Positions 3,629 through 26,954 of a stretch of 37,948 bases of DNA are shown here, piece after piece; position 1 is the stretch's first letter; each line of letters begins with the position of its first letter. The notes beneath the pieces were generated by a model. It did not search any database and was not told the DNA's origin. It was given only the letters and a program-made list of their open reading frames with translations. The stretch comes from a virus (taxonomy: Duplodnaviria; Heunggongvirae; Uroviricota; Caudoviricetes): IMG/VR virus record IMGVR_UViG_2939162341_000002; one strand, given 5' to 3'. Position numbers and translations under genes: made by a program.

Positions 3629-3904
3629 GTGGCTTCTGTTTCTATCAGCTGTCCCTCCTGTTCAGCTACTGACGGGGTGGTGCGTAACGGCAAAAGCACC
3701 GCCGGACATCAGCGCTATCTCTGCTCTCACTGCCGTAAAACATGGCAACTGCAGTTCACTTACACCGCTTCTCAACCCGGTACGCACCAGAAAATCATTG
3801 ATATGGCCATGAATGGCGTTGGATGCCGGGCAACTGCCCGCATTATGGGCGTTGGCCTCAACACGATTTTACGTCACTTAAAAAACTCAGGCCGCAGTCG
3901 GTAA
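3629..3904 (+). CDS. insA: IS1 InsA
   Basis: 91-aa ORF with Cys-rich N-terminus ([28 protein letters not shown]), recognised as IS1 InsA from memory. Confidence 0.93.
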
Positions 3905-4326
3905 CCTCGCGCATACAACCGGGCAGCGATGTGATTGTCTGCGCTGAAATGGACGAACAGTGGGGCTACGTAGGTGCTAAATCACGTCAGCGCTGGCTGT
4001 TTTACGCGTATGACAGGATACGGAGGACGGTTGTGGCGCACGTCTTCGGTGAACGCACTCTGGCCACACTGGAGCGTCTTATGAGCCTGCTGTCGGCCTT
4101 TGACGTGGTGATATGGATGACGGATGGCTGGCCGCTGTATGAATCCCGCCTGAAGGGAAAGCTGCACGTAATCAGCAAGCGTTACACTCAGCGCATTGAG
4201 CGACATAATCTGAATCTGAGACAACATCTGGCAAGGCTGGGACGGAAGTCACTGTCGTTCTCAAAATCGGTGGAGCTGCATGACAAAGTCATCGGGCATT
4301 ATCTGAACATAAAACACTATCAGTAA
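3823..4326 (+). CDS. insB: IS1 InsB (transposase, made as InsAB' by -1 frameshift)
   Basis: 167-aa ORF overlapping the insA 3' end in the -1 frame, characteristic of IS1. Confidence 0.93.
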
Positions 4327-4387
4327 GTTGGAGTCATTACCGAATCGCAACGTAGTTATTATCATATAACAGCTTGTTTCCTGATTT

Positions 4388-4417
4388 AGCCAGCCTCCCC
4401 AAAGGCTGGTTTTTTTC
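4388..4417 (+). terminator. Rho-independent terminator (hairpin plus T7 run)
   Basis: AGCCAGCCT-CCCCAAA-AGGCTGG followed by TTTTTTT, directly right of IS1. Confidence 0.6.
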
Positions 4418-4444
4418 TAATAAGTATCATTTCGGGTGGGGATT

Positions 4445-4969
4445 TTATTGTTTAACCCATAATAGTTCATTGACATTGAATCCCAACTTTTGAGCGGTAC
4501 GCACATAGTCTGCTTTTACATTATCTGGAATAGTTTGGGTCCTTGCCAGAATCCATAGGTATTCTCTGTTCGGACCACTGACAAGAGCATACTTATACTC
4601 ATCATCCAGCTTGATTACATTATAGCCACCATAGAAGGGGCCAAAAAACGAAACTTTCAACGCTGCAGTTTTAGTATCTCCAGTAAAGTATGCTTTACCT
4701 TCGCTCTCGCTCCATTTGTTTTTCGTTGGATCGTATCCACGGTTAAGTACGCGAATCCCTCCGTCGTTCCGTTTTTCATAAGTAGCGCTGACCTGTTCCA
4801 GACCACGTTCGAACCAGTTCTCGAGGCGAGCTATTTCATACCATTTTCCGAGGTAGCGGTTGGCGTCAAAATTTGTAATCGGCTGCACACCTTTAGGTGG
4901 TGTCGGGGCCTTACATGCTATAAGAGTGAAAGAGAGTGCAATGCCAGTCAACACAGGCCATAACTTCAT
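4445..4969 (-). CDS. Outer-membrane lipoprotein of the bacterial lipocalin family (Blc-like paralog)
   Basis: 174 aa; lipoprotein signal peptide with lipobox (LIAC); lipocalin motifs shared with E. coli Blc as recalled (FDANRYLGKWYEIAR, GKAYFTG, ALKVSFFGPFYGGYNVI). Confidence 0.85.
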   Translation of the reverse strand: MKLWPVLTGIALSFTLIACKAPTPPKGVQPITNFDANRYLGKWYEIARLENWFERGLEQVSATYEKRNDGGIRVLNRGYDPTKNKWSESEGKAYFTGDTKTAALKVSFFGPFYGGYNVIKLDDEYKYALVSGPNREYLWILARTQTIPDNVKADYVRTAQKLGFNVNELLWVKQ

Positions 4970-5161
4970 AATAAATCCTGTACTTTTGATAGTTGAGAGT
5001 AAGTATGAAAGATAGATGAGTACGACCGATCACTTAAAGAACTTTCCTACTATATTAGGAATAGTCAATAACAGAAAAATTGTCAGTGATGAAGCCAGAA
5101 AGGCAATTTAGTCCGTGCACTACAAAGTTTATGTGTTAATGAATTAGTCAAGGGGGAGGAA

Positions 5162-6121
5162 ATGATAAAAAAACCTGTGATTGGGATCAGCGGTTGTTTG
5201 GGCGGTTCTGCTGTTCGTTTTGATGGTGGTCACAAAAGAGATGACTTTTTAATGGACAAATTAGTGGAATGGGTAACATTCAGACCAGTATGTCCGGAAA
5301 TGGCTATAGGGCTGCCAGTTCCGCGTCCTGCTCTACGACTTGTGCGCTCGAAGCAAGGAAATATACGGATGTGTTTCAGCCACGACCAGAATGAGGATGT
5401 GACAGAGAGAATGACAGAGTTTAGTCGTTCTTATATGGACAAATTAAAGGATGTATCGGGGTTTGTGGTTTGTGCTAAATCTCCCAGCTGTGGCATGGAG
5501 CGCGTGCGTGTCTATGGTGAAAATGGTAATCGAGGTCGTAAAGATGGAGTGGGACTATTTACGAGCACTTTGATGGAAAAGTTTTCCTGGCTACCGGTTG
5601 AAGAGGATGGGCGATTACATGATCCAGTGCTTCGTGAGAATTTTATTGAAAGAGTTTTTGCTTTGCATGAGCTCAATCACCTTTACAAGGAGAAATTATC
5701 AAGAAGAGAGTTATTAGCTTTTCATAGTCGTTATAAGCTTCAGTTGTTGGCGCATAGCCAGGCAGGCTATAAAGATATGGGACCATTTGTGGCTGCAATA
5801 CACGAGTGGGCGGACCTTGAATCATACTTTGAGGTGTATCGTGATAATCTGATGGCGATTCTCAGAAAACCAGCATCACGTAAAAATCACACGAATGTGC
5901 TGATGCATATACAGGGGTATTTTAGTAATTACTTAAGTACACGCCAGCGTAAAGAGTTGAGCGAGGTTATACTTAACTATCGCTTTGGCACATTGCCTCT
6001 TCTTGCGCCGTTGACTCTGCTGAAGCATTATCTGGGTGAGTATCCTAATGATTACTTGCTTACACAGAATTACTTCGATCCCTATCCGGAAGAACTGGCT
6101 CTAAGACTGATGGTGAATTAA
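5162..6121 (+). CDS. DUF523 (TudS-like thiouracil desulfidase fold) fused to DUF1722 (YbgA-like) protein
   Basis: N-terminal Cys motifs typical of DUF523 (GISGCLGG, VCPEMAIGLPVPRP, KSPSCG); C-terminal half resembles YbgA (NHTNVLMHIQGYF, LPLLAPLTLLKHYL); strong RBS AGGGGGAGGA 2 nt upstream of the ATG. Confidence 0.7.
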   Translation: MIKKPVIGISGCLGGSAVRFDGGHKRDDFLMDKLVEWVTFRPVCPEMAIGLPVPRPALRLVRSKQGNIRMCFSHDQNEDVTERMTEFSRSYMDKLKDVSGFVVCAKSPSCGMERVRVYGENGNRGRKDGVGLFTSTLMEKFSWLPVEEDGRLHDPVLRENFIERVFALHELNHLYKEKLSRRELLAFHSRYKLQLLAHSQAGYKDMGPFVAAIHEWADLESYFEVYRDNLMAILRKPASRKNHTNVLMHIQGYFSNYLSTRQRKELSEVILNYRFGTLPLLAPLTLLKHYLGEYPNDYLLTQNYFDPYPEELALRLMVN

Positions 6122-6527
6122 CTGTATGCGATATCATCTGAAAGTGATGAGTTCCTGTATGCAGGATATTTACAATCGTAAAAACTACGCTATGATGCTC
6201 ATAGTGTCAGTTTTTATAAAAATCCTGTTCACGCTAAAGAAAACATTGAGATGCAATTTAATGTTGGTAAACATACCAGCCCCAAACGATTTTATTCAAT
6301 CTGTTTTTATATGAAGATATTTCAAGTGAATATTAAGAGCATATAATATTATTATTGCACGCAGCTATTATAATATAACAGATTAGTTTAATGATTTGTT
6401 TTTTGTGAGTTAAACACATGGTTTTATAGTTGTGATGCAATGAGATTTTCCTTATTGTTGAACTGGCGAATATTGATTTTCCACCTATACTTACCTGGTG
6501 TAACCCCAATGATATCAGGTGGATAAT

Positions 6528-7241
6528 ATGCCATACATATGTTCTATCATTTTGGTGTTGAACTCGTTTGGTGTCCGAATTGGTAAAGAAGATATTTTGT
6601 TTAAAAAAGGAAATGCTGTCCTCATTGAATACAATTTAAAAGATCTTTTTTCGTCAAATACAGATCATCTAATGATCGTAGATGTTGAGGAGAAAACAGT
6701 TAATGATTTCTTTAAAAACTACACACTCTCACCTTTTTCTGTAAGAAGGTTTTATCCGTCATACTTGATAGTAGAATGTGAAGATTTTTCATTGTTAAAG
6801 AACTTGGTTGCATGCTTGAATTGTGATAGCAAAACCGTGGATGTAGTTAGAAATCAAATATCACTTGCATGTCTTGCTGTCTTATCTTCAGAGAAAATAG
6901 TGCAAAGTTTTTTGTTCGGAAGTCTTAATAACTTAGGTTGTAAAGTTAAGGCTATTATTCACTCGGATATCTCAGCGTCATGGAGACTTTGTGATATATC
7001 TTCAAGATTATATATGAGCGAGAGTTTGTTAAAAAGAAAATTAAAAGACGAAGGATTATCGTTTAGTAAATTAATTCTTGAAGAACGAATGATGATGGCG
7101 CAAAGATTATTGATCTACAGTAACCATACTGTCGGCAAGGTGGCGGGAATATGCGGGTATGACAATGCATCATATTTTGTAAGTGTTTTTAGAAGATATT
7201 TTGGTGTGCCTCCGCACCAATATTTATCAAGATTTTCTTAG
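6528..7241 (+). CDS. AraC/XylS-family transcriptional regulator (AppY/PatE-like), AT-rich
   Basis: C-terminal AraC-type HTH region (MAQRLLIYSNHTVGKVAGICGYDNASYFVSVFRRYFGVPPHQY); N-terminus resembles AppY-type prophage regulators; visibly AT-rich. ORF-finder start is GTG at 6519; ATG at 6528 has RBS AGGTGG. Confidence 0.8.
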   Translation: MPYICSIILVLNSFGVRIGKEDILFKKGNAVLIEYNLKDLFSSNTDHLMIVDVEEKTVNDFFKNYTLSPFSVRRFYPSYLIVECEDFSLLKNLVACLNCDSKTVDVVRNQISLACLAVLSSEKIVQSFLFGSLNNLGCKVKAIIHSDISASWRLCDISSRLYMSESLLKRKLKDEGLSFSKLILEERMMMAQRLLIYSNHTVGKVAGICGYDNASYFVSVFRRYFGVPPHQYLSRFS

Positions 7242-9346: not shown

Positions 9347-9709
9347 ATTAATATTAAATCGGATTATTTTTAGCGCTGAATGTGAAATTTAAATAAAAAG
9401 GACTCTTCCATGAGTCAAAATCCTTGAAATCTTAAGGGTAAGATAAAAGGTCATTAGACAGAATGACACGTTTTATTAATAAATAAAGCTATTGTTTCAT
9501 TCGTGTGTTTTTCTTTACAAAAGTAATCCTTGCTATGGTTGGTTAATCATGCGTTAATGGTGTTCTGGTTTGTTACAAAATTATCTGAAGCAGTCATTGT
9601 TATAATTTTATTATTTGTACCTCTTGAGATTTCCTTGTTGGTTTTTCTCTCTGATATTTTTTTTCGGACCATTCTGCCCAAGGGCTAACTTCTTCAAAAG
9701 GTAATAATG

Positions 9710-9922
9710 ATGTCTAACAAAATGACTGGTTTAGTGAAATGGTTTAACCCTGAAAAAGGTTTTGGTTTCATCACGCCGAAAGATGGTAGCAAAGATGTGT
9801 TTGTCCATTTCTCAGCTATTCAGAGCAACGATTTCAAAACGTTAACTGAGAATCAGGAAGTCGAATTTGGTATTGAGAACGGACCTAAAGGCCCCGCGGC
9901 TGTTCATGTTGTGGCACTTTGA
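9710..9922 (+). CDS. cspI: Cold-shock protein, CspA family (CspI-like)
   Basis: 70 aa; [38 protein letters not shown] matches CspA-family RNP motifs; roughly 360 bp upstream non-coding leader as in cold-shock genes. Confidence 0.9.
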
Positions 9923-10121
9923 GGTAGAAAATATTACAAACCATATTCACTTTAGATGCCCGTGTTGCCATGGTTCTCAGTATAGAACATCATCTTTTGA
10001 TGTTTCTGACAGGAATCCTTTCGGGGCAAAATGTATCTTTTGTAAATCAATGATGATTACATTTGATAATATTTCACAATACTTAAATGTTAGCCGTCTG
10101 TCGTTAGATTTAAGAAAGTGA
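9906..10121 (+). CDS. ynfN: Small Cys-rich protein (YnfN-like, Qin-type)
   Basis: Contains [19 protein letters not shown]...CIFCKS; the first in-frame ATG (9906) overlaps the cspI 3' end, so the true start is uncertain. Confidence 0.5.
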
Positions 10122-10770: not shown

Positions 10771-11172
10771 TCTGTTTATAGCATTAGCATCAATTTCTCA
10801 TCAGATGCTATTCAACAATACAAATTACCCATAAACCTCGTTTTTACGGGGTTTTGTTATATTTAAACATTACCGAATAGGTATAAATCTCGATTGTCGA
10901 TGGTATTGGTTGTGTGACAATACCTAGTCTTTTCGGTATGCCTGAAGAGAATACAAACGACAGATTATGTAAGGGAAACGCGCTGAATCTTTCACTCTTT
11001 CATGCTGAGTGATTTGACGTTATATTTTTAGCCGTAAGTGAAGAGCAAACGCATGGAGCGACAAAATGCATAAAGATCAATACACTGATGCCCCCTCCCA
11101 GGAGCAGGTTCGTGTAAAAACTATGCTTAATAGCACCATTTCTGATCCTACCCACGTAATATGGACACAGGC

Positions 11173-12039
11173 CTAAGCGAGGTTCTTGTTTTCAAATTGT
11201 TCCGGACTGAGGCCGCCACACCAACTGTGCCGCCGCCACCGATTGTAATCACATTCGATATAATTAAACACCGTTGCCCGCATTATTTCCCGGCTGATAA
11301 AGTGTTCTCCATGGATACATTCCACTTTCAGCGAATGAAAGAAGCTTTCCACGCAGGCATTATCGTAGCAGCAACCTTTTGCGCTCATACTTCCACGCAG
11401 ATTATGCCGCTTCAGTTGCGCCTGATAATCTGCTGAACAGTACTGGCCTCCACGGTCCGTGTGAACGATAACGTTCCGGGGCCTCTTACGCCGCCACAGC
11501 GCCATCTGCAGGGCATCGCAGGCCAGTTGCGCCGTCATGCGTGGCGACATTGACCAGCCAATAACGGCACGTGACCACAGGTCAATGACCACTGCCAGAT
11601 ACAGCCAGCCTTCATCTGTACGTAAGTACGTGATGTCTCCTGCCCACTTCTGGTTCGGGCCACTGGCGTAAAAATCCTGCTCCAACAGATTTTCTGACAC
11701 AGGCAGGCCGTGTGCGCGGTAGCTGACCGGGCTGAACTTCCGGGAGGCCTTTGCCCTCAGTCCCTGACGGCGCAGGCTTGCCGCCACGGTTTTTACGTTA
11801 AAGGGGTAACCCTGAGCACGCAGTTCATCCGTCAGGCGTGGGGAACCGTAACGCTGTTTTGACCGGGTAAAAGCCGCGAGGACAACGCTGTCGCAGTGTT
11901 GGCGGAACTGCTGACGCGTGCTTATCCTTGTCCGCCGCTGACACCACGTATACCAGCCGCTGCGGGCCACCCGGAGCACGCGGCACATTGCTTTGATGCT
12001 GAACTCAGCCTGATGTTTTTCAATAAAGACATACTTCAT
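11173..12039 (-). CDS. insF: IS3 transposase OrfB (InsF, DDE integrase domain)
   Basis: 288-aa ORF recognised as IS3 InsF; overlaps orfA in the -1 frame as in IS3-family frameshift fusions. Confidence 0.93.
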
Positions 12040-12344
12040 TTCAGGCGCTTCGCGAAGTATGTCGCGGCCTTTTGGAGGATAGCCAGCTCTTCATCCCGTT
12101 CTGCCAGCTGGCGTTTGAGACGTGCAATCTCGGTAGACATCTCCAGTTCACGTTCAGAAGACGTCTGCTGATTTTGCTGTTTACTGCGCCAGTTGTAGAG
12201 TTGTGATTCATACAGGCTGAGTTCACGGGCTGCGGCAGTAACACCGATGCGTTCAGCAAGCTTCAGGGCTTCACTGCGAAATTCAGGCGAATGCTGTTTA
12301 CGGGGTTTTTTACTGGTTGATACTGTTTTTGTCATGTGAGTCAC
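12036..12344 (-). CDS. insE: IS3 transposase OrfA (InsE, HTH)
   Basis: ~100-aa ORF recognised as IS3 InsE ([32 protein letters not shown]...). Confidence 0.93.
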
Positions 12345-12401
12345 CTCTGACTGAGAGTTTACTCACTTAGCCGCGTGTCCACTATTGCTGGGTAAGATCA
12401 A

Positions 12402-12592: not shown

Positions 12593-14692
12593 ATGGGTTT
12601 TTCATCAGCCCGAAATTTGGGAAGGGACATATCGGCAGGATTTTCCCCACCACGTCGCATGCCGATTTCGGAGGCTGTTAAAAAATTCATGCGTGTTCCC
12701 AAGGGGGCTGGTAACTCGGTGCCATGGGATCCTGAACTGACACCCTACATCATTGAGCCCATGAACTGCCTGGCATCGCGTGAATACGATGCGGTGATTT
12801 TTGTTGGTCCTGCGCGAACAGGGAAGACCATTGGTCTGATCGATGGATGGATTGTCTATACCATCGTTTGCGATCCTTCGGACATGCTCGTTGTGCAGAT
12901 GACCGAAGATAAGGCCCGCGAGCATTCAAAAAAGCGCCTCGACAGAACGTTCAGAAGCAGTGCGGCGGTAAAGAAAAGAATGAGTCCACGTCGTAATGAC
13001 AATAATGTCCATGATAAGACGTTCAGGGATGGCTCGTTCCTTAAAATTGGTTGGCCCTCGGTCAACATTATGTCGTCGTCGGATTACCGGTTTGTCGCCT
13101 TAACCGATTACGACCGTTTTCCGGAGAATATCGACAGCGAGGGTGATGGTTTCTCCCTGGCCTCAAAACGTACCACCACATTTATGTCCGCCGGGATGAC
13201 TCTGGTGGAGAGCTCGCCGGGACGTGACATCTGCGACAGCAAATGGCGACGTAAGTCGCCTCATGAAGCGCCACCGACGACTGGTATTCTTTCCCTTTAC
13301 AATCGTGGTGACCGCCGCCGCTGGTACTGGCCATGTCCGCACTGCGGTGAATATTTTCAGCCAGCCATGGATGCCATGACCGGCTACCGTAATGAACCGG
13401 ATCCCTTTAAAGCCAGTGAGGCGGCGTATCTACTTTGCCCGCACTGCAGCGGCATTATCACTGCGGAGAAAAAGCGTGAGCTCAATAGTGCAGGAGTCTG
13501 GTTGCGTGAAGGTCAGGTCATTGATTGTAACGGCAACGTTTCCGGTGAACCGCGCCGCTCCCGTATCGCCAGTTTCTGGATGGAAGGGCCAGCTGCTGCG
13601 TATCAGACCTGGGCGCAACTGGTTTACAAATTACTGACTGCAGAACAGGAGTATGAAGCGACAGGAAGTGAAGAAACACTCAGGGCGGTTATCAACACCG
13701 ACTGGGGATTACCTTATCTTCCCCGCGCCAGCATGGAGCAACGAAAAAGTGAACTGCTTGAGCAGCGGGCAGAGCCAGTTCCTTCCCGCAGTGTGCCAGA
13801 TGGCGTTAATTTTCTTGTGGCGACAGTGGATGTGCAGGCGGGACGTCACCGCCGTTTTGTGGTTCAGGTAACGGGCTATGGCAGCCGTGGCGAACGCTGG
13901 ATTATTGATCGTTACAACATCACGCAGTCATTGCGCGGTGACAGCGACGGGGAGAGCCAGCGAATTGATCCGGCCAGCTATCCGGAAGACTGGGATGTCC
14001 TGCTGACGGATGTTTTTCATAAAAGCTGGCCGCTGGCCTCCGATCCTTCTCAACAAATGCGACTGATGGCAATGGCGGTGGACTCCGGCGGTGAAGACGG
14101 GGTCACTGATAATGCCTATAAATTCTGGCGTCGTTGCCGTCGTGATGGCCTTGGTAAACGTATTTACCTGTTTAAGGGCGACAGCATCCGGCGCGCAAAA
14201 CTGATCACCCGTACATTCCCTGATAACACCGGACGAACGGGCCGACGGGCGCAGGCCGCAGGTGATGTGCCGCTCTGGCTTCTTCAGACGGATGCACTGA
14301 AAGACCGGGTGAATAACGCGTTATGGCGTGACTCGCCAGGTCCCGGCTATGTGCATTTCCCTGACTGGCTGGGGAGCTGGTTTTACGACGAACTGACGTA
14401 TGAAGAGCGGAGCAGTGACGGGAAATGGAGTAAGCCGGGTCGCGGTGCCAACGAAGCTTTTGACCTGATGGTGTATGCCGAGGCTCTGGTCATTCTGCAT
14501 GGATACGAAAAGATCCGCTGGCCGGATGCACCGGAGTGGGCGAGCCGGGAAACCTGGCTGGAGTGTGTCCCGGACAGTACCGAACCGTCATCCTCACCGG
14601 AACCGGTATCCACGCCTGTTAAAAAACAAAAACGGAAGAAAACAGTAACTGACGATGTTAACCCCTGGCTGACTTCCGGAGGATGGTTATGA
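12593..14692 (+). CDS. Terminase large subunit (GpA family)
   Basis: 699 aa; Walker A (VGPARTGKT); zinc-finger-like CPHCGEYFQ...CPHCSG resembling lambda gpA as recalled; followed by W-like and portal genes. Confidence 0.9.
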   Translation: MGFSSARNLGRDISAGFSPPRRMPISEAVKKFMRVPKGAGNSVPWDPELTPYIIEPMNCLASREYDAVIFVGPARTGKTIGLIDGWIVYTIVCDPSDMLVVQMTEDKAREHSKKRLDRTFRSSAAVKKRMSPRRNDNNVHDKTFRDGSFLKIGWPSVNIMSSSDYRFVALTDYDRFPENIDSEGDGFSLASKRTTTFMSAGMTLVESSPGRDICDSKWRRKSPHEAPPTTGILSLYNRGDRRRWYWPCPHCGEYFQPAMDAMTGYRNEPDPFKASEAAYLLCPHCSGIITAEKKRELNSAGVWLREGQVIDCNGNVSGEPRRSRIASFWMEGPAAAYQTWAQLVYKLLTAEQEYEATGSEETLRAVINTDWGLPYLPRASMEQRKSELLEQRAEPVPSRSVPDGVNFLVATVDVQAGRHRRFVVQVTGYGSRGERWIIDRYNITQSLRGDSDGESQRIDPASYPEDWDVLLTDVFHKSWPLASDPSQQMRLMAMAVDSGGEDGVTDNAYKFWRRCRRDGLGKRIYLFKGDSIRRAKLITRTFPDNTGRTGRRAQAAGDVPLWLLQTDALKDRVNNALWRDSPGPGYVHFPDWLGSWFYDELTYEERSSDGKWSKPGRGANEAFDLMVYAEALVILHGYEKIRWPDAPEWASRETWLECVPDSTEPSSSPEPVSTPVKKQKRKKTVTDDVNPWLTSGGWL

Positions 14693-16422: not shown

Positions 16423-18282
16423 ATGCAGGCTGGTCACCAGAGTGACGCGGATATTTATATTTATGACGAGATTGGTTTCTGGGGTGTTACAGCGAAGCAG
16501 TTTATCAGTGATCTGAATGCACTGGGCGATATCACCCACATTAATCTCCATATTAATTCACCGGGTGGCGATGTCTTTGAAGGCATCGCCATTTTTAATG
16601 CGCTGAAAACACATGGTGCGTCCATTACCGTTTATGTCGACGGTGTGGCGGCGTCAATGGCGTCGGTCATTGCGATGGTGGGAAACCCGGTCATTATGCC
16701 GGAAAACACCTTCATGATGATTCATAAACCATTTGGCTTTACGGGCGGTGATGCGGAGGACATGCGCACCTATGCCGACCTGCTCGATAAAGTTGAGGCG
16801 GTTCTGTTACCCGCTTATGCACAGAAAACCGGGAAAACCACCGATGAAATTGCTGCCATGCTGGCGGATGAGACCTGGATGTCCGGTGCCGAATGTCTGG
16901 CACATGGATTTGCTGATCAGGTGACACCAGCCGTTAAGGCAATGGCATGTATTCAGTCAAAACGTACAGAGGAATTTAAAAAGATGCCGGAATCCATTCG
17001 AAATATGATTACTCCGCCACGCAACAGTGCTCCACGCGTACAGGATGATGGACCTGCAGCCTCCCGGACGCCAGTGCAGGCAGCAGCACCCGTGGTGGAT
17101 GAAAACAGCATCCGTGCGCAGGTCCTGGCAGAGCAAAAAGCGCGTGTAAACGGTATTAATGATCTGTTTGCCATGTTTGGCGGGCGTTATCAGTCGTTGC
17201 AGGCTCAGTGTCTTGCCGATCCTGAATGTTCGCTGGAGCAGGCCCGCGAAAAGCTGTTGAACGAGATGGGGCGCGAGTCCACGCCATCCAATAAAAATAC
17301 CCCGGCTCATATTTATGCCGGTAACGGTAATTTTGTGGGGGACGGGATCCGCCAGGCGCTGATGGCGCGTGCCGGATTTGAAAAAACCGAACGTGATAAT
17401 GTCTACAACGGGATGACCCTGCGTGAATATGCCCGTATGTCACTGACTGAACGGGGTATTGGGGTTTCCAGTTATAACCCGATGCAGATGGTCGGTGCGG
17501 CGTTCACACACAGTACGTCTGACTTCGGTAATATTCTGCTGGATGTTGCGAACAAAGCCATTCTGCAGGGCTGGGAAGATGCCCCTGAAACCTATGAACA
17601 GTGGACGCGGAAAGGTCAGTTGTCTGATTTTAAAATTGCCCATCGTGTGGGTATGGGGGGCTTCAGTGCTCTGCGTCAGGTGCGTGAAGGGGCGGAATAT
17701 AAATACGTCACCACCGGAGATAAACAGGCCACTATTGCACTAGCGACCTATGGCGAGCTGTTCAGTATCACCCGTCAGGCCATTATCAATGATGATCTGA
17801 ATATGCTGACCGATGTCCCGATGAAACTGGGCCGTGCGGCGAAATCCACTATTGCCGATCTGGTTTATGCCATTCTGACGTCTAACCCGAAAATCTCCAC
17901 AGATAATGTAAGTCTGTTCGATAAAGCGAAACATGCAAACGTACTGGAGAGCGCTGCAATGGACGTGGCATCGCTGGATAAAGCCCGCCAGTTGATGCGC
18001 GTTCAGAAAGAGGGGGAGCGTCATCTGAATATTCGTCCTGCGTTCGTACTGGTACCGACGGCGATGGAGTCTGTTGCTAACCAGGTCATTCGCTCCTCAA
18101 GTGTCAAGGGGGCTGACATTAACGCCGGTATTATTAACCCGGTGAAAGATTTTGCGACCGTTATTGCAGAGCCTCGTCTTGATGATAACAGCCAGACCAC
18201 CTTCTACCTGGCTGCGTCAAAAGGCTCCGATACGATTGAAGTGGCTTATCTCAACGGTGTGGATACGCCATATATTGATTAG
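16423..18282 (+). CDS. Fused prohead protease (ClpP/S14-like) and major capsid protein
   Basis: 620 aa from ATG at 16423; N-terminal ClpP-like region (IYIYDEIGFWGV...NSPGGDVFEGIAIFNALKTHG...MASVIAMVG); long C-terminal capsid-like domain. Ends at a TAG followed by 32 in-frame codons. Confidence 0.8.
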   Translation: MQAGHQSDADIYIYDEIGFWGVTAKQFISDLNALGDITHINLHINSPGGDVFEGIAIFNALKTHGASITVYVDGVAASMASVIAMVGNPVIMPENTFMMIHKPFGFTGGDAEDMRTYADLLDKVEAVLLPAYAQKTGKTTDEIAAMLADETWMSGAECLAHGFADQVTPAVKAMACIQSKRTEEFKKMPESIRNMITPPRNSAPRVQDDGPAASRTPVQAAAPVVDENSIRAQVLAEQKARVNGINDLFAMFGGRYQSLQAQCLADPECSLEQAREKLLNEMGRESTPSNKNTPAHIYAGNGNFVGDGIRQALMARAGFEKTERDNVYNGMTLREYARMSLTERGIGVSSYNPMQMVGAAFTHSTSDFGNILLDVANKAILQGWEDAPETYEQWTRKGQLSDFKIAHRVGMGGFSALRQVREGAEYKYVTTGDKQATIALATYGELFSITRQAIINDDLNMLTDVPMKLGRAAKSTIADLVYAILTSNPKISTDNVSLFDKAKHANVLESAAMDVASLDKARQLMRVQKEGERHLNIRPAFVLVPTAMESVANQVIRSSSVKGADINAGIINPVKDFATVIAEPRLDDNSQTTFYLAASKGSDTIEVAYLNGVDTPYID

Positions 18283-21248: not shown

Positions 21249-21535
21249 CGCGGGAAATGCAGTTTGTCATGCGGCTTGCCCGGGAGTTCCGGCGGGCAGA
21301 CTGGCGGCGGATGCTGTCGGAAATGTCGGCCACTGAGCTTGGTGAGTGGGGCGATTATTTCCGGATGCAGAGCTTCAGTGATGTGTGGATGGATGCGCAG
21401 TTTGCCTCGCTGAAGGCATTGATCGTGAGAATGGTGTCCGGCAGCAGTGATGCTGCGGTGGCTGATTTCAGCCTTTTACCGGAAGAGAACGGGATACCGG
21501 AGCGAACGGACGAAGAACTGATGCATCTTGGGTAA
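20859..21535 (+). CDS. Tail assembly chaperone G-T fusion, made by a programmed -1 frameshift near the end of G
   Basis: The T frame (ORF 21257..21535) is -1 relative to G and is open from 21224; only 21224..21245 allows the shift; candidate site G GAA AAG at 21236..21242. Confidence 0.6.
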
Positions 21536-21557
21536 GGTATTTCCGGAGGTGTGCGTT

Positions 21558-24500
21558 ATGGACCAGATAGCCAACCTGGTCATTGATTTGGGGATTGATG
21601 CGGCAGAGTTTAAAAATGAAATTCCCCGTATCAAAAACCTTCTGAATGGTGCAGCCAGCGATGCAGAACGGTCTTCTGCCCGTATGCAGCGTTTTATGGA
21701 GCGTCAGACTCAGGCCGCCCGGCAGACAACGCAGGCGGCGTCTTCGGCTGCAACAGCCGCATCCGTCCATGCGCAGACGGTGGAGAAGAACGCACAGGCT
21801 CATGAACGCATGGCCCGCGAGGTGGAGAAAACCCGCCAGCGTATGGAGGCACTGAGCCAGAAAATGCGCGAGGAACAGGCGCAGGCCATGGCTCTGGCGG
21901 AGGCTCAGGATAAAGCAGCTGCTGCGTTTTATCGTCAGATTGACAGTGTGAAACAGGCCAGTGCGGGGCTGCAGGAATTACAGCGTATTCAGCAGCAGAT
22001 CCGACAGTCCAGAAACAGTGGCGGGATTGGTCAGCAGGATTATCTGGCGCTGATTTCTGAGGTTACGGCGAAAACCCGTGTTCTTACGCAGGCTGAGGAA
22101 GAGGCTACCCGACAGAAAGTGGCGTTTATCCGTCAGCTTAAAGAGCAGGCAACCCGCCAGAATCTTTCTTCTTCTGAGTTGCTTCGTGCTAAGGCTGCCC
22201 AGCTGGGGGTAAGCAGTGCTGCAGAAGTGTATATCCGCAAAATGGAGCAGGCAGGAAAAGCCACGCATTCGCTGGGTCTGAAAAGTGCAGCGGCCCGCCA
22301 GGAGATAGGCGTTCTGATAGGTGAACTGGCCCGCGGCAATGTAGGGGCGCTGAGGGGATCCGGGATAACGCTGGCTAACCGTGCCGGATGGATAGACACT
22401 CTGATGTCACCGAAAGGCATGATGCTTGGCGGGGTTATTGGCGGTATTGCCGCGTCCGTCTATGGTCTGGGTAAAGCCTGGTATGACGGTCAGAAGGAGG
22501 GGGAAGAATTTAACCGCCAGTTGTCGCTGACGGGGCATTATGCCGGAGTCACTGCCGGGCAGCTGTGGACGCTCAGTCGTGCTATTTCCGGGAATGGTAT
22601 CACGCAACATGCTGCAGCCGGTGTGCTGGCTCAGGTGGTGGGGAGTGGTGCATTTCGTGGAAACGATATCGGTATGGTGGCGAGAGCTGCCGCACAGATG
22701 GAGCGATCGGTTGGCCAGTCGGTCAGCGATACCATAAATCAGTTTAAGCGGCTGAAGGATGATCCTGTAAATGCCGCGAAGGCTCTGGACAATGAGCTGC
22801 ATTTTCTTACTGCCACTCAGCTTGAGCAGATACGTGTCCTTGGGGATCAGGGACGGTCCAGTGATGCTGCACGGATAGCCATGTCTGCACTGGCAGAGGA
22901 AACCGGTCGGCGTACTGCGGATATTGATAATAACCTCAATGCGCTTGGCAGTACGCTGAAGTATCTGTCTGATTTGTGGAGTCGTTTCTGGGATGCGGCC
23001 ATGAATATTGGTCGTGAAGACTCGCTGGATGAACAGATTGCCGCTTTACAGGAGAAAGTGTCGCGGGCGAAAAGACTCCCCTGGACGGCATCATCTTCTC
23101 AGGTTGAATACGATCAGCAGCGTCTTAACGATCTTCAGGAGAAAAAACGCCAGAAGGATTTGCAGGATGCAAAAGAGCAGGCAGAGCGGAATTATCAGGA
23201 GCAACAGAAACGACGTAATGCTGAAAATGCTGCACTGAACCGGATGAATGAAACGGAAGCAGCACGACATCAGCGTGAAATTGCGCGTATTAATTCCATG
23301 CAGTACGCCGATCAGGCTGTCAGGGATGCAGCGATACAACGTGAAAATGAACGTTACGAGAAAGCCCTGGCATCCGGTAAGAAAAAAACACGCGAAACCC
23401 GTAATGATGAGGCCACCCGGTTATTGCTGCAGTACAGTCAGCAACAGGCACAGGTGGAAGGACAGATTGCTGCTGCAAGACAGTCAGCAGGCATTGCCAC
23501 TGAAAAGATGACAGAAGCGCATAAACAGCTTCTGGCTCTGCAGCAGCGCATCAGCGATCTGGACGGGAAAAAACTGACGGCAGATGAAAAGAGTGTGCTG
23601 GCCCGTAAAGATGAACTGATTCAGGCACTGACGCTGCTGGATGTAAAACAGCAGGAGCTTCAGAAACAGACGGCACTCAACGATCTGAAGAAAAAAACAA
23701 TTCAGCTGACCAGTCAACTGGCTGAAGAAGAGCTCGTTCAGCGTCAGCAACATGACCTGGATATCGCCACGGTGGGTATGGGTGATCAGCAGCGGCAGCG
23801 ATATCAGGTACAACTGAGTCTTCGCCAGAAATACCAGCAACAGCTGGAGCAGTTGAGGCGGGATAGTGAGCAGAAAGGGACATATAACACGGATGACTAC
23901 AGAAAGGCCGAGCAGGCGCTGACGGAGAGCCTGAACCGACAACTGAATGAGAATCGCCGTTACTGGCAACAGCTTGAAGTTGTGCAGGGTAACTGGAAAA
24001 ACGGAGTCCTGCGTGCATTTCAGGATTTTACCGTGGATGCAGACAATACGGCAGGAACAGCAGAACAGGTGTTCTCGTCAGCCTTCAGCAACATGGGAAA
24101 TGGTCTGGCAACTTTTGTCACTACCGGCAAACTCAACTTCAAATCCTTCACCTCTTCGGTGCTGTCAGATATGGCGAAAATCCTGGCGCAGGCAACCATG
24201 ATGAAATCGATAAAAGGGATTGGCAGTGTACTGGGATTTGATCTCAGCAGCCTTTCCCTGAATGCCAATGGGGGGATTTATCAGTCTGCTGATTTGAGTC
24301 GTTACAGTGGCACGGTGGTTAACCGTCCGACGTTTTTTGCTTTTGCAAAAGGCGCGGGTGTGATGGGGGAAGCTGGACCTGAAGCCATTCTGCCACTGCG
24401 TCGTGGTGCTGACGGTAAGCTGGGGGTTGTGGCGGATATTGGTGGTTCAGGTATGGCGATGTTTGCCCCGCAGTACAACATCGAGATCAATAACGATGGC

Positions 24501-24961: not shown

Positions 24962-25660
24962 ATGCAGGATATTCCACAGGAAACACATCATGAGACGACA
25001 CGCCTCACTCAGTCAGCCCAGGTGGTGCTCTGGGAAATCGATCTGACAGTGGTCGGTGGAGAACGTTATTTTTTCTGTAATGAGCAGAATGAAAAAGGTG
25101 AGTCTGTCACCTGGCAGGGGCGACAGTATCAGGCGTATCCCATTCAGGGGACGGGATTTGAACTGAACGGCAAGGGCAGTGCTGCCCGTCCGACACTGAC
25201 GGTTTCTAACCTGCACGGCATGGTCACCGGGATGGCGGAAGACCTGCAGAGTCTGGTCGGAGGAACGGTGGTCCGGCGTAAGGTTTACGCCCGTTTTCTG
25301 GATGCGGTGAACTTCGTCAACGGAAACAGTGACGCCGATCCGGAGCAGGAGGTGATCAGCCGCTGGCGCATCGAGCAGTGCAGCGAACTGAGCGCGGTGA
25401 GTGCCTCTTTTGTACTGTCCACGCCGACGGAAACGGACGGTGCCGTTTTTCCGGGACGTATCATGCTGGCCAACACCTGCACCTGGACCTATCGCGGTGA
25501 TGAGTGCGGTTATCACGGTCCGGCGGTCGCGGATGAATATGATCAGCCGACGTCCGATATCACGAAGGATAAATGCAGCAAATGCCTGAGCGGCTGTAAG
25601 TTTCGCAATAACGTCGGCAACTTTGGCGGCTTCCTTTCCATTAACAAACTTTCGCAGTGA
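24962..25660 (+). CDS. Minor tail protein L
   Basis: 232 aa; near-identical in pattern to lambda L as recalled, including the C-terminal Cys cluster (CTWTYRGDECGY...CSKCLSGCKFRNN). Confidence 0.92.
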   Translation: MQDIPQETHHETTRLTQSAQVVLWEIDLTVVGGERYFFCNEQNEKGESVTWQGRQYQAYPIQGTGFELNGKGSAARPTLTVSNLHGMVTGMAEDLQSLVGGTVVRRKVYARFLDAVNFVNGNSDADPEQEVISRWRIEQCSELSAVSASFVLSTPTETDGAVFPGRIMLANTCTWTYRGDECGYHGPAVADEYDQPTSDITKDKCSKCLSGCKFRNNVGNFGGFLSINKLSQ

Positions 25661-26409
25661 ATCCCATGACAGAGACAGAATCAGCGATTCTGGCGCACGC
25701 CCGGCGATGTGCGCCAGCGGAGTCGTGCGGCTTCGTGGTGAGAACGCCGGAGGGGGAAAGATATTTTCCCTGCGTGAATATCTCCGGTGAGCCGGAGGAT
25801 TATTTCCGGATGGCTCCGGAGGACTGGCTGCAGGCAGAAATGCAGGGTGAGATTGTGGCGCTGGTCCACAGCCACCCCGGTGGTCTGCCCTGGCTGAGTG
25901 AGGCCGACCGGCGGCTGCAGGTGCAGAGTGATTTGCCGTGGTGACTGGTTTGCCGGGGGGCGATTCACAAGTTCCGCTGTGTGCCACATCTTTCCGGGCG
26001 GCGCTTTGAGCACGGGGTGACGGACTGTTACACGCTGTTCCGGGATGCTTACCATCTGGCGGGGATTGAGATGCCGGATTTTCATCGCGAGGATGACTGG
26101 TGGCGTAACGGTCAGAATCTCTATCTGGATAATCTGGAGGCCACAGGGCTGTATCAGGTGCCGTTGTCAGCGGCGCAGCCGGGCGATGTGCTGATGTGCT
26201 GTTTTGGTTCATCGGTGCCGAATCATGCCGCCATTTACTGTGGTGACAGCGAGCTGCTGCACCATATTCCTGAACAACTGAGCAAACGAGAGAGGTACAC
26301 CGACAAATGGCAGCGACGCACACACTCCCTCTGGCGTCACCGGGCATGGCACGCATCTGCCTTTACGGGGATTTACAACGATTTGGCCGCCGCATCGACC
26401 TTCGAGTGA
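25657..26409 (+). pseudogene. Tail tip assembly protein K (MPN/JAMM plus NlpC/P60 domains) interrupted by an in-frame TGA at 25942..25944
   Basis: The two ORF-finder pieces (25657..25944 and 25981..26409) are in the same frame. The upstream piece carries HSHPGG (JAMM); the downstream piece carries the Cys region (DCYTLF). The stop follows a Trp codon (PW*LVCRG), consistent with TGG to TGA. Confidence 0.8.
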
Positions 26410-26954
26410 AAACGGGGTCCGAAGCCATCCGGGCGCTGGCCATGCAGAACCCGGCGTTTCGTCAGAAACTGAGCGACGGCTGGTACCAGGTACGCATTGC
26501 CGGGCGTGATGCAGGTGAAACCGAATTGTCTGCCCGTCTTAATGAGCCGCTGGCAAATGGTGCCGTGATCCACATCGTGCCGCGTCTGGCGGGAGCTAAA
26601 AGTGGCGGTGTGTTTCAGGTGGTGCTGGGGGCGGCGCTGATTGCGGTGGCATGGTGGAACCCTGTGGGCTGGCTGGGTGCCGCGGCTGTATCGGGCATGT
26701 ATGCGGCAGGGGCCAGTATGATCCTGGGCGGAGTGGCGCAGATGCTGGCACCGAAAGCCAGGACGCCCACGGCAGCAAGTACAGATAACGGCAAACAGAA
26801 CACCTATTTCTCCTCACTGGATAACATGGTTGCCCAGGGCAATGTTCTGCCCGTTCTGTACGGTGAAATGCGCGTGGGGTCGCGGGTGGTCTCTCAGGAG
26901 ATCAGCACGGCAGACGAAGGGGATGGTGGTCAGGTTGTGGTGATTGGTCGCTGA
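26307..26954 (+). CDS. Tail assembly protein I
   Basis: 215 aa; lambda I-like, with hydrophobic Gly/Ala-rich segment and C-terminus NVLPVLYGEMRVGSRVVSQEI; start overlaps the K 3' end (internal alternative MARICLYG). Confidence 0.88.
   Translation: MAATHTLPLASPGMARICLYGDLQRFGRRIDLRVKTGSEAIRALAMQNPAFRQKLSDGWYQVRIAGRDAGETELSARLNEPLANGAVIHIVPRLAGAKSGGVFQVVLGAALIAVAWWNPVGWLGAAAVSGMYAAGASMILGGVAQMLAPKARTPTAASTDNGKQNTYFSSLDNMVAQGNVLPVLYGEMRVGSRVVSQEISTADEGDGGQVVVIGR

Follow-up and report, generated by a model that had tools for sequence, protein, structure and literature searches.

The tail assembly protein K of lambdoid phages (gpK, or TAPK) unites a JAB domain with an NlpC/P60 domain, an architecture set out by Iyer, Burroughs and Aravind in 2006 (PMC1779556). 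The lambda protein is needed for assembly of the tail (PMC12617516), and is absent from the virion (PMC10721106).

The K gene analyzed here lies in a window of 37,948 nucleotides, by which we mean the whole stretch of DNA that was studied, and its reading frame is broken by a single TGA codon. We conclude, with a probability of about 0.9, that this is an ordinary loss-of-function nonsense mutation in the K gene of an already crippled cryptic prophage at the Qin site. Pseudogenization of K in this element is unexceptional and already known; it is annotated by PGAP, and both the mechanism and the protein family are textbook matters.

The opal codon in gene K

Reading and translating the window gives TGG at 25939–25941, with TGA directly after it at 25942–25944. 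The translation of 25657–26412 in one frame runs ...RRLQVQSDLPW*LVCRGAIHKFRCVPHLSGRRFEHGVTDCY..., the immediate surroundings of the stop being ...QVQSDLPW*LVCRGAIHKF.... Apart from this TGA the frame is open to the natural TAG end of the gene at 26409. The open reading frame thereby falls into two pieces, 25657/25666..25944 and 25945..26409, of which the second is listed from a GTG at 25981; both are in one frame, as 25981 − 25657 = 324 = 108 × 3. A sequence-only reading of the window had described two K pieces sharing a frame and separated by a single TGA right after a Trp codon, and the translation agrees in full. It had also stated that full-length K needs read-through, and indeed the NlpC/P60 part is encoded past the TGA and is otherwise untranslated. 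The features of the gene are as follows.

25666..26409, plus strand: K pseudogene, homologous to K of lambda (TAPK, the tail tip assembly protein K; called 'C40 family peptidase' by PGAP); 247 codons long, codon 93 being the internal stop; from PGAP, Pfam and synteny.
25942..25944, plus strand: premature TGA, ancestrally TGG (Trp93), the mutated base being 25944, G>A; from the sole K difference to strain WCHEC050613 and from 41-mer counts.
25666..25941, plus strand: 5′ K fragment of 92 codons, the JAB/MPN domain minus its last β-hairpin; from the Pfam Prok-JAB match at 4–84 on the fragment and the AlphaFold2 secondary structure.
25945..26409, plus strand: 3′ in-frame remainder of K, comprising a linker and the complete NlpC/P60 (C40) domain; from the Pfam NLPC_P60 match at 111–224; translated only if the TGA is read through.

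The identity of the gene is clear. A 753-nt stretch containing K is 96–98% identical in nucleotide sequence to K of lambda-like phages (mEp460, Ayreon, 434 and lambda derivatives), in which K lies between L and I/J; the order M-L-K-I-J is seen in the annotation of lambda and of DNA that is identical to the window or nearly so. When Trp93 is restored, the protein matches Prok-JAB (PF14464) over residues 4–98 (E = 3e-14, above the gathering score) and NLPC_P60 (PF00877) over residues 111–224 (E = 2e-12, above the gathering threshold). The JAMM residues E19, H68-S69-H70 (25867–25875) and S78..D81 lie upstream of the stop, and Cys121 (26026–26028) lies downstream. In alignments of 18 and 23 homologues E19, H68, H70, S78 and D81 are invariant, as are C121, H187 and H199, which are probably the catalytic residues of the NlpC/P60 domain.

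The position of the stop within the fold was judged from an AlphaFold2 model of the intact homologue P0006, which is 98% identical (mean pLDDT 80.8). In the model the last two strands of the JAB domain, at 92–96 and 99–103, form its final β-hairpin (92–103); a low-confidence linker at about 104–120 follows, and then the NlpC/P60 domain. The stop is thus predicted to fall inside strand 92–96 and not in the linker. The sequence-only reading had placed the JAMM motif upstream of the stop and the NlpC/P60 cysteine region downstream. That order is borne out by the Pfam matches to the repaired protein; the one nuance is that the model places the stop within the last JAB hairpin and not cleanly between the domains. 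A Foldseek search with the N-terminal half of the model matched JAMM1 of P. furiosus (5ld9), an archaeal deubiquitinase homologue, and the C-terminal half matched the NlpC/P60 domains of MepS, LytE and autolysin. A sequence search of solved structures returned none for K itself, just the distant JAB protein 2kks.

The gene thus encodes a JAB domain with its JAMM motif (E...HxH...S..D) and an NlpC/P60 domain, in the M-L-K-I-J order of a lambdoid tail module, all as in the gpK/TAPK family, and lacks the uninterrupted frame of about 245–247 codons. With a TGA at codon 93, K of the window is therefore a pseudogene derived from the TAPK family, and not a functional member of it.

The direction of the change is equally plain. 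Base-by-base comparison of K in the window with that of a near-identical sister prophage in E. coli WCHEC050613 gives a single difference, A instead of G at 25944. WCHEC050613 and the outgroup 2017.20.01CC, whose K genes are each 99.9% identical (one base off), both have G at this position, hence TGG and an intact K (WP_064732705.1), and lambda and mEp460 read TGG TGG CTG at the site. Both W92 and W93 are invariant in the 18 and 23 aligned homologues, which are 67–98% identical and come from five genera (Escherichia, Salmonella, Citrobacter, Yersinia and Edwardsiella); a two-domain protein of 245–247 aa is the dominant form among 836 K homologues. TGG is therefore the ancestral codon, which a G>A transition has turned into TGA. 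This is the change that had been proposed as likely from the window itself, together with the expectation that intact homologues would have Trp here; all of the homologues examined read TGG or Trp, and none terminates at this point.

The gene might instead be functionally split, giving a stand-alone JAB protein and a separately initiated NlpC/P60 protein. There is some precedent for such a division, in that NlpC/P60-only variants of TAPK occur in some prophages (Iyer et al. 2006, PMC1779556). Moreover, the NlpC/P60 domain lies entirely downstream of the in-frame GTG at 25981, and the annotated K of the lambda reference starts at an internal ATG (199 aa), so that an N-terminally shortened K may be tolerated. 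A naturally split gene would provide its NlpC/P60 part with its own start and ribosome-binding site, in an arrangement common to its relatives, and this is not what we find. No Shine–Dalgarno-like sequence precedes GTG 25981; the following GTG in this frame, at 26017, lies just three codons ahead of the catalytic Cys121, which is too near. We thus rejected a re-initiation product from either codon. Neither the exact 142-aa product nor the exact 95-aa product (from a GTG start) is present in a collection of 15 billion proteins, so the former has never been called there. The nearest relatives, WCHEC050613 and 2017.20.01CC, have a fused K, the truncated JAB piece would lack two core strands according to the model, and the allele is limited to a single clonal lineage, in which the prophage is defective. 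Separate initiation of a downstream protein, which the sequence-only reading had named as grounds for giving up its view, is on this evidence highly improbable.

Distribution of the TGA allele

How widely does the stop occur? A megablast search with K of 5426 complete E. coli genomes returned 13 records that are 100% identical. The allele was also counted using a 41-mer centred on the mutated base, which megablast cannot match unless the central base is the same. The version with TGA was found in exactly 13 records among the 5426 complete genomes (12 strains, T16R being represented twice), in one copy each, always chromosomal and at one Qin/ydfJ site; the TGG version was found in 353 of the genomes searched. 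The TGA 41-mer is absent from free phages, of which 50,697 records were searched. The truncated product of 92 aa is encoded, with exactly this sequence, in 48 public contigs (NCBI, ENA and Logan), and the exact repaired K of 247 aa in 919 contigs. The sources of the strains with the TGA allele were pigs, a cow, a dog, humans and sediment, and several countries are represented, among them China, Thailand and Singapore. In all 13 RefSeq records PGAP labels K as 'C40 family peptidase', a pseudogene with an 'internal stop'.

The TGA allele is real and inherited, and is not a sequencing error. That it might reflect a faulty base call or assembly at 25944 had been recognized when the stop was noticed, and is now scarcely conceivable: 13 complete assemblies, produced independently of one another, have the same allele, as do the 48 contigs, and it co-segregates with three other SNPs on the stem of the lineage and with a deletion. 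With a single codon the point at issue is this recurrence and not chance.

The window itself is essentially identical to E. coli L37, with no mismatch over its 37,948 bases and just two compensating 1-nt indels, located in IS3. These lie at 11749 and 11790; in RefSeq L37 they render the IS3 transposase 'frameshifted', and the window agrees with HUE1 at these positions. The indels in RefSeq L37 may be assembly errors.

Decay of the prophage at the Qin site

The element occupies the ydfJ locus, with ydfJ truncated at its right end, and carries the Qin markers pinQ, ydfK, cspI, rrrQ, rzpQ, gnsB and ynfN. The single Rfam match in the window, to the cspA thermoregulator at 9552–9968 (109.8 bits), covers the cold-shock gene cspI and its 5′ leader; there is no Rfam match near the stop in K. 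From left to right, annotation and Pfam identify an integrase, an excisionase, an exonuclease gene that IS1 has cut short, cargo of non-phage origin and the lysis genes. Genes for a repressor, for replication and for Q were found in the element neither in the L37 annotation nor with Pfam. With ydfJ and the Qin markers present and the lytic modules missing, the element is a cryptic (defective) lambdoid prophage of the Qin type. Its insertion sequences and cargo are the following; the cargo and IS1 together span 3629–7241, the place in which a lambdoid prophage would be expected to have its early, immunity and replication region.

3629..4326, plus strand: IS1 transposase; IS1 truncates the exonuclease gene and adjoins cargo in place of the early/immunity/replication region; from L37 annotation and Pfam.
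4445–4969, minus strand: lipocalin, non-phage cargo.
5162–6121: 2-thiouracil desulfurase/DUF1722 YbgA-like protein, cargo.
6519–7241: AraC-type regulator, cargo.
11143..12400, minus strand: IS3 of 1258 bp with an adjacent 897-bp deletion, junction 12400/12401; from BLAST break points against WCHEC050613.

The 897-bp deletion, defined relative to WCHEC050613, removes the 5′ 344 nt of a DUF1441 small-terminase-like gene together with the DNA upstream, and what remains of the gene matches only positions 103–144 of the profile. To the left of IS3 the clade members differ. A truncated integrase adjoins it in DY612, T16R, YY76-1, 19-5, SEV1 and ET915, and a holin in YZ22PE244. Such differences indicate that rearrangements mediated by IS3 have occurred repeatedly in the clade.

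The lesions of the stem were scored in 11 aligned clade records (of the 13 with TGA) and the window, and to these are added changes that are confined to individual strains.

12400/12401, stem: the 897-bp deletion, truncating the small-terminase-like gene.
17742, stem: SNP, synonymous.
19270, stem: SNP, Val>Gly.
21533–21535, plus strand, stem: G>T in gene T, GAA (Glu93) to TAA, cutting T (a G-T frameshift product, the tail chaperone) by 17 codons.
25944, stem: G>A, K W93*.
18280..18282, plus strand, the window and L37 only: prohead protease/major capsid fusion gene, in which the Gln643 codon, ancestrally CAG, is TAG.
HUE1 only: additional stop in TerL, W246*.
ET915 only: additional 1-nt deletion (frameshift) in the tape-measure gene.

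Gene T ancestrally extended over 21257–21586, and is annotated as 279 nt in the clade versus 330 nt in WCHEC050613 and 2017.20.01CC. The stop in T is not flagged by PGAP, which simply annotates a shorter T. At 18280–18282 CAG is found in 12 of the 12 other relatives compared, i.e. in all but L37; a synonymous change at 13849 is likewise specific to L37 and the window.

From the capsid TAG, the K stop and two insertion sequences the sequence-only reading had drawn the picture of a prophage accumulating inactivating mutations in its structural genes. The capsid stop and both IS elements are confirmed, and to them may be added the stop in T, the 897-bp deletion and the absence of the early region; the picture is correct and, if anything, understated. 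The locus provides a clean and datable series of decay in a Qin-site prophage, in which insertion of IS3 was followed by the adjacent deletion, then by the stops in T and K, and then by strain-specific stops in TerL and capsid and the frameshift in the tape-measure gene. It could make a small case study of prophage erosion.

The substitutions of the lineage are 14 non-synonymous to 3 synonymous, a pattern consistent with relaxed constraint. The proportion of stops among them is high. The comparison covers 12593–34467 of the window against the corresponding DNA of the relatives (loci L002–L015), and comprises 17 derived coding SNPs, divided into 4 nonsense, 10 missense and 3 synonymous changes. 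The neutral expectation for nonsense is 3.3–4.1%, giving P = 0.002–0.004 for 4 of 17. The spectrum is strongly biased towards G:C>A:T, with 14 of the 17 SNPs being G:C to A:T or T:A changes, and given the mutation classes actually seen, the expected number of nonsense changes is 0.83 (P = 0.007).

Could stops in the late operon have been favoured by the host, for example by ending the synthesis of costly or harmful tail and head proteins from a remnant without a repressor? The four nonsense changes where about 0.8 are expected by class speak for such a selected knock-out, as does the finding that two of the four stem SNPs are nonsense. Pure neutral decay does not predict the excess, though it fades on correction for ascertainment. 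The count is biased because the window and the site were chosen for their stop codons: leaving out the focal K site gives P = 0.04, and if the capsid TAG is also left out, 2 of 15 remain by our estimate where about 0.7 would be expected, and significance is lost (P of roughly 0.16). The numbers are small, and without the Q antiterminator or an early region the strong late transcription that is the presumed source of the cost is not evident. Selection for the knock-out is accordingly unlikely, and the excess of stops is a weak hint of it that we treat as a lead only. Should a census free of this bias confirm the excess, it would be relevant to the question of whether hosts actively select for inactivated structural genes in their prophages.

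The ordinary nonsense mutation remains our preferred explanation of the K allele. On this reading the invariant Trp93 codon became TGA, in place of TGG, through a spontaneous G:C>A:T transition at 25944, which arose once, on the stem of the clonal lineage, and has been inherited vertically since. The analysis establishes the base change itself, its direction and its inheritance, as well as the domain layout and the other lesions. Its persistence would be due to the tail genes lying outside purifying selection in a prophage that can neither replicate nor package its DNA.

Consequences of the stop and comparison with known systems

On translation of the K message the ribosome meets UGA at codon 93, where termination by RF2 would free a JAB fragment of 92 residues that lacks two core strands; the fragment is probably unstable. 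The NlpC/P60 peptidase domain would not be made. We infer that K function is lost (a null allele) and that the change is neutral. Since gpK is needed for tail assembly in lambda, the TGA allele should by analogy block assembly of the tail tip. In this element, which is already unable to yield phage, the block changes nothing more. From 26307 onward the 3′ end of K is shared with the downstream gene I, whose translation may be reduced through lost coupling or polarity.

The allele may be hypomorphic rather than null. The stop lies in the context UGG UGA CUG, and leakage at a level of a few per cent could yield wild-type K if near-cognate Trp-tRNA(CCA) inserted the ancestral Trp. Poole, Brown and Tate reportedly found in 1995 that UGA followed by C is the weakest termination context in E. 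coli. UGA is the leakiest stop codon of E. coli, competition between Trp-tRNA and RF2 giving 2–4% read-through in K-12 reporters (PMC10570021). A small amount of K might suffice for tail assembly, since gpK acts in assembly without being a structural component; virions do not contain it (PMC10721106), and it may be needed only sub-stoichiometrically. (The study of termination context in PMC9841425 concerns mammalian cells, not E. coli.) Against this, the RNA offers nothing that would stimulate read-through downstream; a segment of 81 nt that surrounds the TGA and extends 3′ from it has a minimum free energy of −23.7 kcal/mol against a shuffle mean of −27.5, so that the fold is weaker than that of the shuffles (z = +1.1). 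The weak RF2 allele of K-12 probably inflates the read-through values obtained in that strain. The TGA is not conserved in any relative. Phage cannot be made at any level of K, with no early region, a partial small terminase, a truncated T and a TAG in capsid. Residual K would therefore have no target, except possibly in tail-only particles. We consider a functionally significant leak at the TGA improbable.

Two more adventurous ideas extend these alternatives. One is that the UGG-UGA-C allele is a 'self-correcting' nonsense mutation, in which leaky insertion of Trp restores K itself; the other, separate from it, is that the approximately five- to six-fold excess of nonsense changes (in K, T, TerL and capsid) reflects host selection against late genes. 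We regard the pair as a long shot. With loss of K by simple nonsense mutation as the preferred reading, what follows is correct annotation: K should be labelled a pseudogene, and the prophage classed as cryptic and unable to make particles. The stop has little significance beyond that.

How does the locus compare with systems that are already described? It shares with programmed UGA read-through and selenocysteine insertion an in-frame UGA beyond which coding continues in frame. We rejected recoding of this kind for K. The TGA is unconserved, occurring in one clonal lineage only, and the ancestral codon is Trp. In addition, there is no SECIS-like element or other stable 3′ structure that might stimulate recoding.

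The closest known counterpart is gene K of lambda. At about 96% nucleotide identity to K genes of the lambda type, the gene of the window has the same two-domain layout and the same place between L and I/J, and it encodes all the invariant catalytic residues, but codon 93 is TGA in place of the invariant TGG, so that normally only the first 92 residues would be made. The lambda reference (NC_001416) itself differs from the window at another point of K. At about position 1262, equivalent to about 25799 of the window, it is one base shorter, reading GGAGG-CTATTT versus GGAGGATTATTT. With one base fewer, the first approximately 45 JAB codons of the reference, including that of the conserved Glu19, are therefore in another frame. 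The lambda protein is annotated as 199 aa from the internal ATG, compared with 247 aa for K of other lambdoid phages. The one-base difference could be a real lesion of laboratory lambda or an old sequence error.

The amber mutants of lambda K (Kam) provide a further parallel, as they too have a nonsense codon in K. Kam mutants fail to assemble tails in non-suppressing hosts. They are laboratory amber alleles, whereas the allele of the window is opal, of natural origin, and belongs to a prophage with many other defects.

Lastly, the element shares its chromosomal site with Qin of E. coli K-12, together with the flanking and marker genes at ydfJ listed above. It differs in keeping a whole head and tail module, which we take the K-12 Qin prophage to have lost. 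By this comparison the element of the window represents an earlier stage of decay than K-12 Qin, marked by point lesions in place of wholesale deletion.
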